This document shows positions 8,391 through 25,015 of a stretch of 25,237 bases of DNA, in pieces. Position numbers and translations under genes: made by a program. Source of the DNA: Bacteroidales bacterium (lineage in GTDB: Bacteria > Bacteroidota > Bacteroidia > Bacteroidales > Azobacteroidaceae); NCBI GenBank assembly GCA_031553885.1, contig JAVBKV010000028.1:1-25237 (forward strand), written 5' to 3'. Under the pieces are notes generated by a model. That model saw only the letters and a program-made list of their open reading frames with translations, had not been told where the DNA came from and made no database searches. Positions within the stretch are counted from its first letter, which is position 1. Every line of letters begins with the position of its first letter.

Positions 8391-8425
8391 ATTTCAAAGG
8401 CTCATTTTATTCAAACTTATTTTCT

Positions 8426-8465
8426 TTGGAAATCATTTTCCATTGGAAATTTGTTTATTTGGAAA
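8426..8465. promoter_or_regulatory. Candidate operator: a TGGAAA-TCAT-TTTCCA palindrome (8427-8442) inside three direct TTGGAAA repeats (8426, 8443, 8459)
   Basis: Seen directly. It lies immediately upstream of and overlapping the predicted −33 element of the CoADR-fusion gene promoter. Confidence 0.4.
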
Positions 8466-8481
8466 GTAAATAATACCTTTG
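8450..8481 (+). promoter_or_regulatory. Bacteroidota sigma-A promoter: −33 TTTG (8450-8453) and −7 TACCTTTG (8474-8481)
   Basis: The two elements are 20 bp apart, and the −7 box is 21 nt upstream of the ATG at 8503. Confidence 0.5.
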
Positions 8482-8502
8482 CCGGAAAATAACAACTAAA
8501 AA

Positions 8503-10941
8503 ATGAAGCATATAATCATCGGAGGTGTCGCCGGAGGAGCTACAGCCGCTGCAAGAATACGAAGAACGGACGAATTTGCAGAAATCATCCTGATAGAAAA
8601 AGGAGATCATATTTCTTATGCCAATTGTGGATTGCCTTACTACATCGGAGGTGTGATTGCCGACAGGGATAAGCTTTTCCTGCAAACGCCGGCGTCTTTC
8701 GGACTACGGTTCAATGTCGATGTACGGACAGGAAACAGGGCCATTGACATCGATCCGGACAGCCGGACAGTAAAAATCCGCAAATCCGATGGCAGTGAAT
8801 ACACAGAAACCTACGAACGTCTGCTGCTTTCTCCGGGAGCATCCCCGGTAATTCCTCCTCTGAAAGGTATTGAATCGGAAGGTATCTTTACTTTACGGGA
8901 TGTCAGGGATACCGATCAAATAAAAAATTATCTCCACACGCACGCTGTTCAAAAAGCCGTAGTAATTGGTGCAGGTTTTATCGGATTGGAAATGGCCGAA
9001 AACCTGCACCATTCAGGGGCTGAAATTTCCATTGTGGAAATGAGCAACCAGGTGATGACCCCGGTCGATTTTTCGATTGCATCACAAGTACATCAACACC
9101 TGGTCCGGAAAGGTGTAAATCTTTTCCTGGAACAAAAAGTCGAACGTTTCGAACGCCGGGGGGAAGAAATCGTTGTTTATCTACAAAACGGGGAACGCAT
9201 TTCTGCAGACCTGGTTATTTTATCCGTCGGGGTACGTCCGGAAACAGAACTGGCGCGGAAAGCCGGCCTGAAAATCGGAGAAACGGGAGGAATCTGGGTC
9301 AACGAATACCTGGAAACTTCTGTAAAAGGGATCTATGCCGTAGGCGATGCGATCGAATTTCCTCACCCGCTGACCGGAAAACCCTGGTTGAATTATTTAG
9401 CCAACCCGGCTAATCGACAAGGGCGTATTGTTGCAGACAATATGGTTCTCGGAAACAAAATTTCCTACGAAGGCGCCATCGGCACAGCCATTGCTAAAGT
9501 TTTCGACCTGACTATTGCCTCCACCGGACTTCCGGCCAAACGACTGAAGCAACTGGGTATCGCTTTTCAAAGTTCCACGACTCATTCCAATTCTCATGCA
9601 GGTTATTATCCGGATGCATTGCCACTGACAATTAAGCTCACATTCGACCCGGGAAACGGAAAACTGTACGGAGCCCAATCCGTGGGGTATGACGGTGTCG
9701 ATAAACGTATCGACCAACTGGCACTCATCATCAAGCAGGGAGGAACAATCTACGATCTCACCCGCCTTGAGCATGCATACGCCCCTCCCTACTCTTCTGC
9801 AAAAGATCCCGTCGCCATTGCCGGATATGTCGCCGGAAACATTATCAATGAATCCATGCCTGTAGTTTCATGGAGGGAAATACAACAAATCCAGACAGAA
9901 AACCAGGCAATAATTCTGGATGTACGTACGCAGGAAGAATTTGCATTCGGCTCTATTCCGGGTGCAATCAATATTCCGCTCGATGAAATTCGTTCTCGAT
10001 TGACAGAGATTCCTGCCGGCAAAACCATTATCCTGTACTGTGCAGTCGGATTACGCGGATACCTTGCACTGAAAATCCTGAAAGCAAGGGGCTACAACGA
10101 TGTCCGGAACCTCTCAGGCGGATATAAAACATATTCTGCTTCTACTGCACTCATAAATAGAAAAACTCCGGAAAATTCAACTCCGGAAAATAAGAACCCC
10201 GCACAAAAAGACATGAAAACAATCCGTATCGATGCCTGCGGCCTGCAATGTCCGGGGCCTGTATTGAAAATTAAACAGGCGGTCGATTCCATCAGCGAAG
10301 GCGATCGCATTGAAATAACAGCTACCGATGCCGGTTTTTCCCGGGATGCGGAAGCCTGGTGTAACTCCACAGGCAATAAGCTCATTTCCAATACGGAAGA
10401 CAAAGGCCGGTACACGGTAGTAATTGAAAAAGGATCACAGCAATCCTGTCCCGTGACAACTCCGGAAGGAGGCAAGAATAAAACGCTGATCATGTTCAGT
10501 GATGACCTGGACAAAGCGCTGGCCACATTTGTCCTGGCCAACGGAGCGGCTGCCACAGGAAAAAAAGTATCGATCTTTTTTACCTTTTGGGGATTGAACG
10601 TCATAAAAAAAGTCCGGAAGCCACAAACAAAAAAAGATATTTTCGGAAAAATGTTTTCGATGATGCTACCTTCCAATTCATTTCAATTGAAATTATCCAA
10701 AATGAGCATGCTCGGTATCGGCGATCGCATGATGCGGTACATTATGAAACGCAAAGGAATCGAATCGCTTGAGAATCTCCGGGAACAGGCGATCGCTCAG
10801 GGAGTCGAGTTTATCGCCTGCCAGATGTCCATGAATGTTATGGGTATCAATCGGGAAGAATTACTGGATTGTGTTACGATCGGAGGAGTAGCCACCTACA
10901 TGGAACGGGCCGAACAGGCCAATGTCAATCTGTTTATCTGA
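8503..10941 (+). CDS. Four-domain fusion of CoA-disulfide reductase / NAD(P)H persulfide reductase with a rhodanese domain, a TusA-like domain and a DsrE/DsrF-like domain
   Basis: 'IIGGVAGGATAAARI' is the FAD fold and 'SYANCGLPYY' the CoADR redox Cys. The rhodanese segment is 'ILYCAVGLRGY'. The TusA CPxP motif is 'IDACGLQCPGPVLK', with an internal ATG at 10213. The C-terminal 'LIMFSDDLDKALATFVLANGAAATGKKVSIFFTFWGLN ... EFIACQMSMNVMGI' is DsrE-like. Length 812 aa. Confidence 0.85.
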   Translation: MKHIIIGGVAGGATAAARIRRTDEFAEIILIEKGDHISYANCGLPYYIGGVIADRDKLFLQTPASFGLRFNVDVRTGNRAIDIDPDSRTVKIRKSDGSEYTETYERLLLSPGASPVIPPLKGIESEGIFTLRDVRDTDQIKNYLHTHAVQKAVVIGAGFIGLEMAENLHHSGAEISIVEMSNQVMTPVDFSIASQVHQHLVRKGVNLFLEQKVERFERRGEEIVVYLQNGERISADLVILSVGVRPETELARKAGLKIGETGGIWVNEYLETSVKGIYAVGDAIEFPHPLTGKPWLNYLANPANRQGRIVADNMVLGNKISYEGAIGTAIAKVFDLTIASTGLPAKRLKQLGIAFQSSTTHSNSHAGYYPDALPLTIKLTFDPGNGKLYGAQSVGYDGVDKRIDQLALIIKQGGTIYDLTRLEHAYAPPYSSAKDPVAIAGYVAGNIINESMPVVSWREIQQIQTENQAIILDVRTQEEFAFGSIPGAINIPLDEIRSRLTEIPAGKTIILYCAVGLRGYLALKILKARGYNDVRNLSGGYKTYSASTALINRKTPENSTPENKNPAQKDMKTIRIDACGLQCPGPVLKIKQAVDSISEGDRIEITATDAGFSRDAEAWCNSTGNKLISNTEDKGRYTVVIEKGSQQSCPVTTPEGGKNKTLIMFSDDLDKALATFVLANGAAATGKKVSIFFTFWGLNVIKKVRKPQTKKDIFGKMFSMMLPSNSFQLKLSKMSMLGIGDRMMRYIMKRKGIESLENLREQAIAQGVEFIACQMSMNVMGINREELLDCVTIGGVATYMERAEQANVNLFI

Positions 10942-10946
10942 ATTTT

Positions 10947-11303
10947 ATGGAAGTTTTATGTAAAATCCGGGATATTTACCGGGCCATCGCTGCATTCGAG
11001 CAATTGTTTGAAAAAGAATTCGACCTCTGCCTCAATGAAGGGATGGCGCTGTGTTCCCTTTCAAAATCCGGACAACTCACCTCCGGAGAAATCGCAGACT
11101 TACTGGGACTAACCACCTCCAACGCCTCTAAAGTGATTACTTCGGTGGAAAAAAAAGGATTAGTCAGCCGTGTGCTGGGCGAAAAAGACAAGCGGCAAAT
11201 GTATTTTTCCCTTACCCCGGATGGCAAAAAGCGGATAGAAGCGATCTATGGCAACACGCCTGAACTTCCCGAAATCCTGAAAGAGGCTCTTCATTTAAAC
11301 TGA
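10947..11303 (+). CDS. MarR-family winged-helix transcriptional regulator, small (118 aa)
   Basis: 'LTSGEIADLLGLTTSNASKVITSVEKKGLVSRVLGEKDKRQMYFSLTPDGKK' is the MarR HTH-plus-wing pattern. The start is taken at ATG 10947, 5 nt after the upstream stop. The six-frame ORF from 10869 overlaps the previous gene and is probably not the true start. Confidence 0.65.
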   Translation: MEVLCKIRDIYRAIAAFEQLFEKEFDLCLNEGMALCSLSKSGQLTSGEIADLLGLTTSNASKVITSVEKKGLVSRVLGEKDKRQMYFSLTPDGKKRIEAIYGNTPELPEILKEALHLN

Positions 11304-12547
11304 ATAACCTGCATGCCGGCAAGCCGGTCATAACGGGCTCCCATCGGACGATGGTAGACCATCACCCGGTATTCGTTTTCCGTCTGGAAATAATTGCCTT
11401 CAATCGGAGCCGTATTTCCGGGAGAATCACCGCTTTTTTTCGTGACATATAAATAATTGTAGTATCCTTCTTTCAGCAAGACGGTTTTCACATACCCTTT
11501 ATCCGCCTCACTGTATTCCATACGGCTTCGTTCGTCCATGATATTCTGGAAAGCCTCTCCCAACAGGTAGACGTTTTCAGAAAAAGGCTTTTCACAAGGC
11601 AAATAAAAATGGACAAAATTATAATCCGCTTCATAATCATATTCCACGGCATCTTTGTTCCGGATAAAAAATTTACCATCAATATCTTCTGTATAAGCAT
11701 AGGAATACCCGGACCGGATTCCGGAAGGCCTTAATATCGTATGAAAATAAGGAGCATGAAACTCCACGGCTTCAATACCCAGGCCATTGGATTTCGGAGT
11801 GATCATTTCAAAGCTGCGGTATTCGTTCCCTCCTTCAAAAATCAATGCCGGATTGTGATTGTACACCAACCGCTTGCCATACACACTCATAGGCCTTACC
11901 AAAGCGGCCTGGTTATCGGTCCGGTTGTTTTGAAATACATAAACCTTCAGGTCCTGCATGGGAGTTGTAACCTGATTACCGCAAGTCAGTTCAAAAGCGA
12001 CCTGCTGATAATAGGTATTCACCCCCTTATCGGTACGGGAGTCAACCCGGATCTGAATGGGAATTTCCTGTTCCACGACCGAAAAACAAGCTGTTAATAC
12101 GGGGTGTTCCTTGTCGTTTTCAGGATAAACACGAGCTACATAATTCCCCGAAACTTTCATGGTCAGATCTTCGTTCGGAAAAAAAATCTTGTAATTCGTA
12201 TAATCCATGGTAGTATTGAACGAAGTGGAATAATCGTTGATGTAACTGTGCTGAAACCCACTCATGAATTCCGACTGGATCAATTGGGAAGGCGTCCAGT
12301 CCGCATTGCAATGAGTCAGGGTATACGTGTAAGCCTTCGACTGCGGACTCAGCTCATCAAAACTGACCTCGATGGCAGTACCTCCTTCCAGTTGAATGAC
12401 GGGAGGAGCCTGCCAATCATCCACTACACTTACTCTTAACGTCTTTATCTTATCGGAAAATATCCCGGTCCGGAAAGGTTGTGCGGCAAACATCGATTGT
12501 ACCAACAAAAAAGCCACAGCCAAACAATATAGATTTTTCTTTTTCAT
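11291..12547 (-). CDS. Secreted protein of unknown function (signal peptide), possibly of the DUF5103 / T9SS-plug-domain family
   Basis: Long ORF. The start is taken at MKKKNLYCLAVAFLLVQSMFAA, which reads as a signal peptide. The protein is rich in Y/N/T, as beta-rich secreted proteins tend to be. The family call is from memory. Its 3' end overlaps the convergent MarR gene by 13 nt. Confidence 0.55.
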   Translation of the reverse strand: MKKKNLYCLAVAFLLVQSMFAAQPFRTGIFSDKIKTLRVSVVDDWQAPPVIQLEGGTAIEVSFDELSPQSKAYTYTLTHCNADWTPSQLIQSEFMSGFQHSYINDYSTSFNTTMDYTNYKIFFPNEDLTMKVSGNYVARVYPENDKEHPVLTACFSVVEQEIPIQIRVDSRTDKGVNTYYQQVAFELTCGNQVTTPMQDLKVYVFQNNRTDNQAALVRPMSVYGKRLVYNHNPALIFEGGNEYRSFEMITPKSNGLGIEAVEFHAPYFHTILRPSGIRSGYSYAYTEDIDGKFFIRNKDAVEYDYEADYNFVHFYLPCEKPFSENVYLLGEAFQNIMDERSRMEYSEADKGYVKTVLLKEGYYNYLYVTKKSGDSPGNTAPIEGNYFQTENEYRVMVYHRPMGARYDRLAGMQVIQFK

Positions 12548-12606
12548 TATGCAAATATGCGAATTTATCACTATCTTTAGCAACGGAAAAGAAATAAATT
12601 TATTTT

Positions 12607-21645: not shown

Positions 21646-21711
21646 TTGTTGAATTAATTTGACAATAAAATCATTGTTGATTTATTTTTACAGCAAAACA
21701 ATTGTTGAATA
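21646..21711 (+). repeat. Three direct repeats (T)TGTTGA(A/T)T(T/A) starting at 21646, 21674 and 21702, with exact 28-bp phasing. A fourth copy, AATTGTTGAATTG, lies at 21452.
   Basis: Seen directly in the AT-rich intergenic region immediately upstream of the ATG at 21723. Confidence 0.5.
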
Positions 21712-21722
21712 AAAAAAGAATT

Positions 21723-22913
21723 ATGAATATAAACTGGATCGCACCTGACATTGTTCTTGGCCCTGTTGCCACAGGAAACAACTTCTACCTCCGCAACGAT
21801 ATGGTAGAACTAATTTGGGTCGAATTAAAAAAAGGCAAATCCGTTCTGCTTGCAGCACCCCGCCGCGTAGGGAAAACTTCAGTGATGCAGTACATGGAAA
21901 GACATCCAATAGAAAACTACAAGATGATTTTCCAAAATATTCAAGGCATTGAGACGGCCAACGAATTTTTTGAAAGAATATATACGATGCTTCTAAATTG
22001 TCTGAACACAACGGATAAAGCGAAAAAATGGGTTAAAAAACTCTTAAAGTCTAAATCAATAAAAAAAATCAGTCTAGATGGAATCGAGTTTGAAACTAAA
22101 CCGACTGATTTTTTAGCGGCAACAGATACATTGCTTAAAGAATTAAATGATAATCAGGAAATTGAAAATCTTGTTTTGTTATTGGACGAACTTCCGGAAG
22201 TACTGTTTAGAATCAACAAAATAAGCAACAAGGATGCAATATCTATTCTTAAAAATTTGCGCCGTTGGCGACAACAGCCCGAAATGAACAAAAAAGTACA
22301 ATTTGTGCTTGCCGGTTCAGTGGGCATTCATTATGTGGTCGAAAAAATTGAAACGCGTAATACGGATTTGAATGATTTAATACCTCCTGTTAAGTTTGAG
22401 CCTTTATCTGATACGGAAGCCTACAACTATATTGATTGGGCAACAAAAGATGCTACAATCACTTATGATACCAGGTTAAAACAACATTTGCTTAATAAAA
22501 TACATTATTTTGTGCCGTATTTTATTAATTTGCTACTTGACGAAACAGACAAGCAGGCAAAGAAAAAGAATGCTTCGGAAATTACAACTCAAGATATTGA
22601 CACCGCTTTTGATACGGTGGTTAAATACAGTGATTATTTTAAAGATTGGAAAAAACGCCTGGACGATTATATGCCGAAAGAAGATTTCAATTTTGTAAAT
22701 GAAATTCTGGTTCATACGGCACACAAAGAATATATAACCTTACAGGAAATTTACGACAAAGCCGTTCGACACAATAAAACCGCCAGTTATAGGGATTTTA
22801 TTGACGAATTGGAAAAGGATGGGTACATTATCGAAATTAACGATCAGTATCGGTTTATATCGCCGTTTTTGAATGCATTCTGGAAAAGAAATAATCCGAT
22901 TTATACCAGTTAA
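21723..22913 (+). CDS. P-loop ATPase with a C-terminal winged-helix domain (Arch_ATPase/DUF234-like architecture), 396 aa
   Basis: 'VLLAAPRRVGKTSVM' is Walker A, 'LVLLLDELPEV' Walker B and 'VQFVLAGSVG' sensor-1-like. The C-terminal 'ITLQEIYDKAVRHNKTASYRDFIDELEKDGYIIEINDQYRFISP' is wHTH-like. The gene is in a low-GC region, and the start is taken at the first ATG (the ORF track starts at TTG 21702). Confidence 0.7.
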   Translation: MNINWIAPDIVLGPVATGNNFYLRNDMVELIWVELKKGKSVLLAAPRRVGKTSVMQYMERHPIENYKMIFQNIQGIETANEFFERIYTMLLNCLNTTDKAKKWVKKLLKSKSIKKISLDGIEFETKPTDFLAATDTLLKELNDNQEIENLVLLLDELPEVLFRINKISNKDAISILKNLRRWRQQPEMNKKVQFVLAGSVGIHYVVEKIETRNTDLNDLIPPVKFEPLSDTEAYNYIDWATKDATITYDTRLKQHLLNKIHYFVPYFINLLLDETDKQAKKKNASEITTQDIDTAFDTVVKYSDYFKDWKKRLDDYMPKEDFNFVNEILVHTAHKEYITLQEIYDKAVRHNKTASYRDFIDELEKDGYIIEINDQYRFISPFLNAFWKRNNPIYTS

Positions 22914-22924
22914 ACTTAAGTGCT

Positions 22925-25015
22925 ATGTTATCAATTTATCAAAACTCAAATGCAGATAATTACGAAAGTATTAAAGCCGGCTTTATTGTTCGCACGGCGG
23001 AATACGAAACAATTATTGCGTCATTAAAAAACAGGAAGTCTGGTGATTCTATCCAACATGAACTTATCCTGGGAAGGCGTGGCAGTGGAAAATCGACGTT
23101 ACTCAAACGCATTGAAGTTGAAATAGCTGAAAATAAAAAATTAAATGCCAAATATATTCCCGTGAATTTAGCGGAAGAACAGGCGGGAATTTATCGTTTG
23201 ATGGATTTGTGGGAACAGGTTTTGCAGGAACTATATTGTAGAAGCAATGAAAAGTATGAGATAAAGAATTTTTTCGAATTTACTGGCGAACAAGCTTATA
23301 CACGCTATCTGTATAGTGAAATCCACCGCTTTTGTGAGACTAAAAAGAAAAAAGTCGTATTACTTCTGGATAATTTCGACAGGATTGTCGGTAATTTTTC
23401 CGATGACGGTAACTTGCTACGAGAAATACTTATCAATTACCAGGATCTTGTGCTAATTGCTGCAAGCACTCAAATGGGTGAGCACTTTTGGAATTATGAC
23501 CAACCTTTCTACGAATTTTTTCGCCGTCATCGGTTAGAGGAATTGAACAGCGAGGAAACGTTTTGCCTGCTCAATCATTGGAGTCATTCGTTGGATTTTG
23601 ACGAAAAGGGAAGGATGAAAATTGACGATTTCTTGAAAAAACATACAGGAAAAGTGGAAAACATCCGGTTACTTACCGATGGATTACCCAGAACAATGTT
23701 GTTGTTTTTAAAACTGGTGTTACAAACCGAAAATCCGATGGAGGTCGATTATTTGAAAAAAATAATGGATGAAGTTACACCCTTATATCAGGAGAGGTTA
23801 CTCAATCAGACTCCACCAATGCGAAAAATAATACTTGAGATGGCCTTTATGTGGGAAGCTGTTCCGACAAAAGAAATTGCAGAGCAATGCCGGATGGAAA
23901 GTAAACTAGTAGCTGCCAACCTCAAAACGTTAACAGATCGGAATGTAGTAGAAACCATTGCTACTGATAAGCGAAATAACCTGTACCGAATTTCCGAACG
24001 TTTTTTTAATATGTGGCTGCTCGTTACGCAAGGCAATCCTGAACAAAAACGCAAAGCCCGCTGGATGAGTGATTTTTTGGAAAACTGGTACGACAAGCAG
24101 GAACTACAAACTATTGCACAACAACACATTGAAAATTTAAAGGCATGTAAACTTACAGGAGAAAAAGCGCTTGTACTTAGTAAAGGATTGAGTCAAAGCA
24201 GGTATATAAGCACTCGCTCCCGGGATGAAATAATAGATCTCACAAAAGCACAATTAAGAAAATCTCTTGATAATTATGTGCTACAGTTACCAGAACCAAT
24301 AAGAGAAATTAGTAAAAAAATTGATGCTCTTGAAAAAATAAATCCACAAAAAGCCATTGATCTTATAAATTCAATTGAAAATGAAGAGGATGGCTGGAAG
24401 GAAAATAACTTAGGTGTTATTTATGAAAATCAGGAAAAGTTCGATTTAGCTGAAAAATATTATTTGCTTGCGATTGAAAAAGGAGATGCTAGAGCCATGT
24501 TCAATTTAGGGCTTTTATATAGCAATCAGGAGAAGTTTGATTCAGCCAAAAAATATTATTTGCTCGCAATTGAAAAAGGAGATGCTAGAGCCATGTTCAA
24601 TTTGTCTTTGATATATTATTTTCAAAACAAGAACAAAGAGCAAGCAAGGCCGTATATTAGCAAATACGAAGGCAAAGAGGTTGGTAAAATTATTATAGAA
24701 ATATGGGCTGGTGTGTTTAATGCGGTGGAAGAAAGAGCTGTAGCCGTATGTAATAAAAGCAAAGAAAATGTGTTTTTTATAGAGCGCTTACTTATTCATC
24801 ATCAAAAGAGTTTAGTAGATAAACTATTTCACCATCCTGAATTCGGCAAACGTTTGCAGGAACAATATACAGTATTGTATTATGTAACTCAGATACTAAA
24901 TGGCAAGGAGAACGAGAACAACTTGATGCTACGCATTCCTCCTGAACTGCAAAGTACGGTAAACGATGTTTTGCAAAAAATAAAAGATAAACAAATTTCT
25001 TATGAAAAGGGCTAA
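22925..25015 (+). CDS. STAND-like P-loop NTPase with a winged helix and C-terminal Sel1/TPR-like repeats, 696 aa
   Basis: 'LILGRRGSGKSTLLKR' is Walker A, 'VVLLLDNFDRIV' Walker B and 'LVLIAASTQ' sensor-1. 'MRKIILEMAFMWEAVPTKEIAEQCRMESKLVAANLKTLTDRNVVETIATDKRNNLYRISERFFNMW' is a wHTH. The C-terminal 'YYLLAIEKGDARAMFNLGLLY' appears twice and is a Sel1 signature. The protein is a paralog of the upstream ATPase and starts 11 nt after it. Confidence 0.75.
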   Translation: MLSIYQNSNADNYESIKAGFIVRTAEYETIIASLKNRKSGDSIQHELILGRRGSGKSTLLKRIEVEIAENKKLNAKYIPVNLAEEQAGIYRLMDLWEQVLQELYCRSNEKYEIKNFFEFTGEQAYTRYLYSEIHRFCETKKKKVVLLLDNFDRIVGNFSDDGNLLREILINYQDLVLIAASTQMGEHFWNYDQPFYEFFRRHRLEELNSEETFCLLNHWSHSLDFDEKGRMKIDDFLKKHTGKVENIRLLTDGLPRTMLLFLKLVLQTENPMEVDYLKKIMDEVTPLYQERLLNQTPPMRKIILEMAFMWEAVPTKEIAEQCRMESKLVAANLKTLTDRNVVETIATDKRNNLYRISERFFNMWLLVTQGNPEQKRKARWMSDFLENWYDKQELQTIAQQHIENLKACKLTGEKALVLSKGLSQSRYISTRSRDEIIDLTKAQLRKSLDNYVLQLPEPIREISKKIDALEKINPQKAIDLINSIENEEDGWKENNLGVIYENQEKFDLAEKYYLLAIEKGDARAMFNLGLLYSNQEKFDSAKKYYLLAIEKGDARAMFNLSLIYYFQNKNKEQARPYISKYEGKEVGKIIIEIWAGVFNAVEERAVAVCNKSKENVFFIERLLIHHQKSLVDKLFHHPEFGKRLQEQYTVLYYVTQILNGKENENNLMLRIPPELQSTVNDVLQKIKDKQISYEKG
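24428..24619 (+). repeat. Near-perfect 96-bp (32-aa) tandem duplication of a Sel1-like repeat unit inside the ATPase gene
   Basis: The units 24428-24523 and 24524-24619 share a 39-nt identical block (GAAAAAGGAGATGCTAGAGCCATGTTCAATTT), with only a few substitutions elsewhere. Confidence 0.8.

Follow-up and report, generated by a model that had tools for sequence, protein, structure and literature searches.

A BmoR-like repressor, a candidate operator and a four-domain CoADR–rhodanese–TusA–DsrE oxidoreductase: a putative reactive-sulfur operon of Bacteroidales

We analysed a stretch of 25,237 nucleotides (nt) from a Bacteroidales bacterium (assembly GCA_031553885.1, contig JAVBKV010000028.1), which is called the window throughout and in which positions 8437-11303 carry a palindrome, a gene for an oxidoreductase of 812 amino acids (aa) and a gene for a MarR-type regulator (table 1). 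In our reading, to which we assign a probability of roughly 0.6, this segment is a self-contained autoregulated operon, where the MarR repressor and its operator control a reductase of the coenzyme A disulfide reductase (CoADR) class that is equipped with a CstA-type sulfur relay. The unit is not new: as judged from sequence comparison, it is the orthologue of the published BF638R_0572–bmoR operon of Bacteroides fragilis 638R.

The B. fragilis operon was described by Teixeira et al. (2018, Sci Rep 8:14405; PMC6158253), who annotated BF638R_0572 with CoADR, rhodanese, TusA, and DsrE domains and found the MarR-type gene bmoR directly 3′ of it. In a bmoR deletion strain, expression of BF638R_0572 was increased, some 11-fold on arrays and some 50-fold by quantitative PCR, and purified BmoR shifted a 151-bp promoter fragment in electrophoretic mobility shift assays (EMSA), where TTTCC inverted repeats were noted (PMC6158253). 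A double mutant lacking both bmoR and BF638R_0572 was more sensitive to diamide, and BmoR was linked to growth under oxidising conditions (PMC6158253). The trxP–doxDA operon, which includes a gene for an exported thioredoxin, rose in the bmoR deletion strain in an indirect and BF638R_0572-dependent manner, and EMSA on its promoter was negative (PMC6158253).

For a direct comparison, the B. fragilis locus was recovered from gut metagenomes by exact matches to the EMSA forward primer of the same study (PMC6158253). The two EMSA primers match this locus (L096) at a distance of 151 bp, and the BmoR expression primer matches too. The enzyme encoded there has 826 aa, and the limits of its TusA domain (589-657) and its DsrE domain (to 825) equal those given in Table 3 of that paper. 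Over the full length, the enzymes of the window and of B. fragilis share 66% identity, and the window MarR protein is 50% identical to BmoR (E 2e-39) over 113 of its 118 residues. Moreover, the EMSA-bound fragment of B. fragilis holds TTTCCATAGGAAA, whose half-sites and 3-nt spacer are the same as those of the window palindrome TTTCCATTGGAAA.

Table 1. Features of the oxidoreductase–MarR unit (positions in the window)
Feature	Position	Strand	Remarks
Degenerate second palindrome copy TTTTCTTTGGAAA	8420..8432	.	1 mismatch
Candidate BmoR operator, 13-nt palindrome TTTCCATTGGAAA (TTTCC-N3-GGAAA)	8437..8449	.	Sole exact copy in the window
Putative Bacteroidetes-type promoter	8450..8481	+	-33 TTTG 8450-8453, abutting the palindrome; -7 TAccTTTG 8474-8481, 20 nt on
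Extra TGGAAA half-site	8460-8465
Four-domain oxidoreductase gene	8503..10941	+	812 aa; orthologue of B. fragilis BF638R_0572
CoADR-type FAD/NAD(P)H disulfide-oxidoreductase module, aa 1-444	8503..9834	+	Cys42 codon 8626-8628; Pfam Pyr_redox_2 and Pyr_redox_dim
Rhodanese domain, aa 459-546	9877..10140	+	Active-site Cys513 codon 10039-10041; Pfam 8.6e-21
TusA domain, aa 575-643	10225..10431	+	CPxP Cys583 codon 10249-10251; Pfam 5.3e-21
DsrE_2 (DrsE_2) domain, aa 659-811	10477..10935	+	Cys773 codon 10819-10821; Pfam 6.1e-57
BmoR-like MarR repressor gene	10947..11303	+	118 aa; Pfam MarR and HTH_27
MarR cysteine codons	Cys5 10959-10961; Cys28 11028-11030; Cys36 11052-11054	+

Domains and conserved cysteines of the oxidoreductase

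A first-pass annotation of the window, made from the letters alone, had described the 812-aa protein as a CoADR–rhodanese–TusA–DsrE fusion, and Pfam supports all four domains, with every match far above its gathering score. In the N-terminal module, Pyr_redox_2 covers residues 1-284 (6.6e-63) and Pyr_redox_dim residues 330-432. The TusA and DsrE assignments, on which that annotation had let its proposal stand or fall, were upheld by hidden Markov model (HMM) searches and by the aligned catalytic cysteines. The motifs that it had quoted are all present in the open reading frame (ORF), namely SYANCGLPYY (Cys42), YCAVGLRG (Cys513), CGLQCPGP (Cys579 and Cys583), and IACQMS (Cys773).

The conservation of these residues was examined in an alignment of the query and 41 representatives of 50%-identity clusters of four-domain length, which are 22-65% identical to the query. 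Cys773 was kept in all 42 sequences, Cys513 and Cys583 were each kept in 41, and Cys42 was kept in 37, while the remaining cysteines of the protein were variable. The four enzyme cysteines thereby persist down to 22-40% identity and across phyla. They also coincide with functional positions of solved proteins: Cys42 is aligned with the flavoprotein cysteine in the SFANC(GLPY) motif of BaCoADR-RHD and Npsr, Cys513 with the rhodanese (RHD or Rhd) cysteines of 3icr and 3nta, and Cys583 with the CPxP cysteine of Escherichia coli TusA/YhhP (1dcj, LRCPEP). The TusA domain was also aligned to 3lvj. The DsrE_2 domain matched PDB entry 3pnx (1.5e-27), with ACQ(L/M)S aligned and Cys773 placed on the cysteine of ACQLS; by its profile matches, the C-terminal domain belongs only to the broader DrsE_2 Pfam family.

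The N-terminal ~550 aa of the protein can be aligned along their entire length with BaCoADR-RHD (3icr, 1e-166), Npsr (3nta, 4e-160), and EfCoAPR (8a56, 1e-143), which were the best PDB matches, whereas stand-alone CoADRs match the 812-aa protein at only ~1e-79, far weaker than the rhodanese-fused class. Free-standing Rhd–TusA–DrsE_2 proteins of ~358 aa are 46-49% identical to it over the TusA–DsrE part. The earlier view of the three C-terminal domains as a CstA-type set agrees with these free-standing homologues and with the literature, in which Rhd–TusA–DsrE is the domain set and relay of CstA (PMC9918477). One detail of the first-pass annotation had to be given up. The in-frame ATG at 10213 (Met571), located at the start of the TusA domain, had been taken as a hint of an ancestral gene fusion; methionine occupies this position in only 10 of 72 Bacteroidales sequences and in 2 of the 42 diverse homologues, and the codon was rejected both as an internal start and as a fusion scar because Met571 is not conserved.

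The repressor, its operator and the promoter

The ORF list confirmed a MarR gene with three cysteine codons behind the oxidoreductase gene, as had been reported: its first ATG lies at 10947, 5 nt past the oxidoreductase stop at 10941. The protein was recognised by the Pfam families MarR (2e-10) and HTH_27 (1e-10). That its three cysteines might serve a thiol-based sensor, as previously proposed, stood the comparison for two of them only. Cys5 and Cys36 were invariant in 172 of 172 BmoR-like sequences, B. fragilis BmoR included, while Cys28 was variable. In the AlphaFold2 model (pLDDT 94), the protein adopts a compact MarR fold whose C-terminal helix is short; Cys5 lies in helix 1 (residues 2-25) and Cys36 in helix 2 (residues 29-41). 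Foldseek TM-scores of the model against MarR, MepR, and AbfR were 0.65-0.79. The fold search with this model returned no close redox-sensor relative and only generic MarR neighbours (17-26% identity); by sequence, the nearest solved structure is that of the redox sensor AbfR (5hlh, E 2.5e-6). Because Cys5 and Cys36 are invariant, the protein has a MarR fold, and AbfR is the nearest by sequence among solved structures, the BmoR-like MarR is likely a two-cysteine thiol switch. Sulfane-sulfur sensing by MarR, MexR, and OhrR provides precedents in the MarR family (PMC11211675, PMC8614764, PMC9495516).

The upstream palindrome noted in the first pass was found again immediately before the putative promoter. 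Based on the orthology with B. fragilis and on the conservation of the operator across species, MarR is the probable regulator of the operon, as had been suggested, and the palindrome is its likely operator. We inspected the 200 nt upstream of the enzyme gene in 70 homologous regions, and found TTTCC-N3-GGAAA as an exact copy in 20 of them; 39 have it if one mismatch is allowed. Elsewhere in these loci, exact palindromes occur at 0.0034 per 200 nt, which corresponds to a ~85-fold enrichment upstream of the homologues (binomial p about 6e-33). The palindrome was correlated with the presence of the regulator gene: it was present in 32 of 37 loci where MarR follows the enzyme gene, versus 7 of 28 where no MarR gene is linked (Fisher p = 6e-7). 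This co-occurrence lends indirect support to repression of the window operon by its own MarR protein. In the window itself, region 8420-8465 contains TGGAAA three times and TTTCCA once.

Promoters of Bacteroidetes reportedly follow a -33/-7 consensus, which is attributed to work by Bayley et al. from 2000, and elements of this type adjoin the palindrome in the window. The arrangement of palindrome, TTTG, and TAnnTTTG recurs in related loci (designated here by L numbers), namely L004, L011, L017, L027, L045, L055, and L073. To judge from these positions, a palindrome next to the -33 element and past the -7 box fits repression by promoter occlusion. A separate observation concerns paired palindromes, which several species have: in L007, L027, L045, L055, and L073 (130 nt upstream of the ATG), two TTTCC-N3-GGAAA copies ~52 nt apart bracket the TAnnTTTG -7 box. 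A sigma-70 promoter scan was set aside as uninformative for Bacteroidetes.

Some loci have exact palindromes upstream of the oxidoreductase gene and no MarR homologue within up to ~4 kb on each side (L007 from Alistipes sp., L008, L010, L011, L033, L039, and L073), where the missing-MarR result for L008, L011, and L033 relates to less than 2 kb of downstream sequence. For these seven loci, the repressor may act in trans from a gene at another site. When TTTCCNNNGGAAA was searched in the whole window with at most one mismatch, 11 matches were obtained, compared with 2.4 expected from shuffles, and only that at 8437 was exact. All of them except the operator and the copy at 8420 lie outside this intergenic region, mostly within coding sequence. 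We did not take the excess as a regulon.

Related loci and neighbouring genes

At least 8000 matches to the enzyme were obtained in a set of 5.8 billion proteins. The best 120 of them all have the same domain set, are labelled "FAD-dependent oxidoreductase" or "Coenzyme A disulfide reductase," and come from Alistipes and other Bacteroidales. The second-best homologue, the 961-aa protein P0002 from an ENA contig, was considered as a larger fusion and rejected as an assembly artefact, as ~110 residues of its dimerisation region are tandemly duplicated and its N-terminal extension is spurious. Searching with the TusA–DsrE_2 part yielded 270 clusters at E < 1e-30. Many of these were proteins of ~800-830 aa that match at their C-terminus; others were ~350 aa long, and two of three that were scanned had the CstA-like organisation Rhodanese–TusA–DrsE_2. 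Free TusA–DrsE_2 proteins were also found in this search. One four-domain representative, which has a gene for a small acid-soluble spore protein (SASP) in its vicinity, occurs in a metagenome-assembled genome (MAG) of Bacillota; the fusion therefore crosses phyla.

One genome per species was scanned for related loci, and 80 full-length loci with 63-75% identity were collected from Bacteroides, Alistipes, Prevotella, Tannerella, Odoribacter, Muribaculaceae, Marinifilaceae, and others. A MarR homologue was located on the oxidoreductase strand in 51 of these 80 loci, mostly downstream and at times upstream, and the arrangement found in the window was the commonest type (20 loci). In 30 of the 80 loci, a thioredoxin of 150-163 aa with a lipoprotein signal peptide and a WCGPC motif is encoded inside the oxidoreductase–MarR operon; L014, L019, L021, L023, L028, L032 (6455-7891), L035, and L042 are among them. 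Other recurring members of the operon are a SAM methyltransferase, a small DUF6132 membrane protein (CxxxxC), an HMA-like protein, an MBL-fold hydrolase, and ComB. About 9-11 loci are extended and have the order ComB, MBL hydrolase, oxidoreductase, DUF6132 small membrane protein, SAM methyltransferase, thioredoxin, and MarR. The operon thioredoxin has a parallel in B. fragilis, where trxP, the gene for an exported thioredoxin, rises when bmoR is deleted and does so in dependence on BF638R_0572.

A different regulator adjoins the oxidoreductase gene in L075 (6509-7435) and in seven other Prevotella and Muribaculaceae loci that have no linked BmoR-like gene. This is an OxyR-like LysR gene, and the best NCBIfam match of the L075 protein is OxyR, at 178.7 bits and under the cut-off. 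The distribution suggests that BmoR has been replaced by an OxyR-like LysR regulator in some loci of these groups.

The oxidoreductase–MarR pair in the window is flanked by unrelated genes, with an NAD(P)HX repair gene and a DUF4831 gene on its 5′ side. On the other side lies a convergent gene for a type IX secretion system (T9SS) plug-domain protein (11291-12583, minus strand), whose end overlaps the 3′ end of the MarR gene by 13 nt (11291-11303); because of this overlap, there is no space for a separate terminator after the operon. An Rfam scan of the whole window matched no RNA family and thus gave no hint of a riboswitch leader. Genes for sqr or a persulfide dioxygenase (PDO) were absent from the window and from the conserved neighbours of the related loci. 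Farther downstream, positions 21702-25015 are low in GC (34-38% vs ~45%) and hold two adjacent STAND-type NTPase genes, one with AAA_35 and the other nSTAND_NTPase5/NACHT-like with TPR repeats. This stretch may be a defence island.

Proposed function, rival explanations and known systems

We propose the following course of events for the operon. A dimer of the BmoR-like MarR would bind the TTTCC-N3-GGAAA site abutting the -33 element and repress both genes, as expected from orthology with B. fragilis. A thiol-reactive signal would then modify Cys5 and Cys36 and release the repressor; candidates for this signal are sulfane sulfur (persulfide or polysulfide), an oxidant, and an electrophile. For the enzyme, we infer the chemistry from homology and from the conservation of its cysteines. 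It would be a cytoplasmic NAD(P)H/FAD reductase of the CoADR–rhodanese class, in which the electrons of the flavin would reach Cys42. In characterised CoADR–rhodanese proteins, the persulfide of the rhodanese cysteine is moved by the arm of the bound coenzyme A (CoA) to the flavoprotein cysteine, and reduction with NAD(P)H gives H2S (PMC9405070). By analogy, a bound CoA "swinging arm" may take sulfane sulfur from Cys513 to Cys42 in the window enzyme, where H2S would be released, and a function as persulfide or polysulfide reductase is plausible on the same grounds. The TusA (Cys583) and DsrE_2 (Cys773) domains would most likely be built-in, CstA-like carriers that feed the rhodanese site; low-molecular-weight compounds or proteins would be the donors of the sulfane sulfur or thiosulfonate that they collect. 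The net role of the operon would be to keep the CoA and thiol pool reduced and free of persulfides.

Several points weigh against this proposal. The phenotypes published for B. fragilis concern oxygen, H2O2, and diamide and not sulfide (PMC6158253), and no biochemical study or enzyme assay of the four-domain protein was found in the literature. The best NCBIfam match of the enzyme is TIGR03385 (CoA-disulfide reductase, 7.5e-143), with 476.5 bits under an equivalog cut-off of 578.8, and the family of the sulfur carrier DsrE2 (NF047629) scores 87.2 bits under a cut-off of 210. The promoter of the window is recognised by consensus matches only. Moreover, outside Bacteroidales (in the Bacillota MAG and one other lineage) the gene is found on its own; none of its neighbours there is related to sulfur, and no informative regulator adjoins it.

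Part of these data could be read as Teixeira et al. read them: the enzyme would be mainly a CoA-disulfide or general thiol:disulfide reductase that maintains reduced CoASH under oxidative or disulfide stress, BmoR an oxidant sensor, and the carrier domains accessory. The TIGR03385 match speaks for this explanation, as do the diamide sensitivity of the double mutant and the link of BmoR to growth under oxidising conditions (PMC6158253), the OxyR-like LysR gene in the place of MarR in some Prevotella and Muribaculaceae loci, and the operon thioredoxin genes in 30 of the 80 loci. We regard it as rather unlikely, given that the match stays below the equivalog cut-off, that the rhodanese-fused class, of which EfCoAPR reduces CoA persulfide, is far closer to the window enzyme than true CoADRs are, and that the reduction of disulfides needs no three extra carrier domains with near-invariant cysteines. 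The two explanations, CoA-disulfide reduction under oxidative stress and persulfide reduction, are compatible with each other.

The carrier domains could also be engaged in the handling of thiosulfate or tetrathionate, where TusA and DsrE would carry thiosulfonate, the flavoprotein would reduce it, and the system would be linked to the operon of the thiosulfate:quinone oxidoreductase DoxDA. The transfer of thiosulfate by DsrE3A and TusA of Metallosphaera (PMC4175335), which Teixeira et al. cited, is a precedent, and the BF638R_0572-dependent rise of trxP–doxDA in the bmoR deletion points in the same direction; the link in B. fragilis is indirect, however, and EMSA on the trxP–doxDA promoter was negative (PMC6158253). 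With no doxDA among the conserved neighbours of the 80 loci and the DsrE2 equivalog missed by a wide gap (87 vs 210 bits), we consider this explanation quite improbable. TusA and rhodanese domains serve biosynthetic sulfur pathways in E. coli. Together with the alignment of the TusA domain to 1dcj and 3lvj, these roles would allow sulfur trafficking toward tRNA thiolation, the molybdenum cofactor, or Fe-S clusters instead of detoxification. We give this hardly any credence: a redox-type MarR devoted to the gene keeps it under tight repression, B. fragilis can do without it, its neighbourhoods contain no biosynthetic partner genes, and its carrier domains are fused to a reductase.

Beyond the autoregulated operon with a sulfur-relay reductase, a more specific proposal can be made, which we hold only tentatively and at somewhat less than even odds. 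It states that BmoR may be a dedicated two-cysteine sensor of persulfide or polysulfide in gut Bacteroidales, not a general regulator of oxidative stress, and that it may control a single-polypeptide "collect-and-reduce" machine, in which a CstA-like Rhd–TusA–DsrE relay would supply a CoA-persulfide reductase, in many species together with an exported thioredoxin encoded in the operon.

The window itself adds mostly annotation and presents an ordinary orthologue of a published operon, whose study has so far been confined to oxidative stress in B. fragilis. What our comparison contributes is the order-wide conservation of enzyme, repressor, and operator, the two invariant cysteines of the repressor, the enzyme cysteines conserved across phyla, and the frequent operon thioredoxin. 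Taken together, they allow a testable reinterpretation, in which a sulfane-sulfur sensor would control a sulfane-sulfur reductase. Bacteroidales dominate the sulfide-rich gut, and this operon bears on their handling of persulfide and polysulfide. If the more specific proposal is true, the operon would represent the main route of reactive-sulfur clearance in an abundant and sulfide-exposed gut phylum, and BmoR would be the first regulator of the MarR type to be devoted to an operon for sulfur detoxification.

Compared with known systems, the window enzyme shares the SxANC cysteine of the flavoprotein and the rhodanese cysteine with Bacillus anthracis CoADR-RHD, Shewanella Npsr, and Enterococcus faecalis CoAPR. 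These proteins end after the rhodanese domain (551-588 aa), whereas the window enzyme continues with TusA and DsrE_2. E. faecalis CoAPR is controlled by CstR of the CsoR family, while the window enzyme is linked to MarR. Its C-terminal ~350 aa (459-811) have the domains and the order of Staphylococcus aureus CstA (Rhd–TusA–DsrE), which is without a flavoprotein, in contrast to the fused one in the window, and which sits in a sulfide-oxidation operon (sqr, cstB) under CstR rather than beside a MarR gene. With the thiol-based sensors OhrR, MgrA, SarZ, and AbfR, the window MarR has in common the MarR winged-helix fold, and its conserved Cys5, close to the N-terminal end of helix 1, may be the counterpart of their sensing cysteine. 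Its family is unusually short compared with these sensors (116-118 aa, with a truncated C-terminal helix), and the pair Cys5/Cys36 is particular to the BmoR-like family. The closest counterpart is BF638R_0572–bmoR, which shares the four enzyme domains at almost identical limits, a MarR gene directly downstream on the same strand, and the TTTCC-N3-GGAAA repeat in the promoter. The window differs from it in coming from another lineage of Bacteroidales, in the extra, non-conserved Cys28 of its MarR protein, and in the position of the operator, which lies 66 nt upstream of the ATG and abuts the -33 TTTG in the window and lies ~26-38 nt upstream in B. fragilis.

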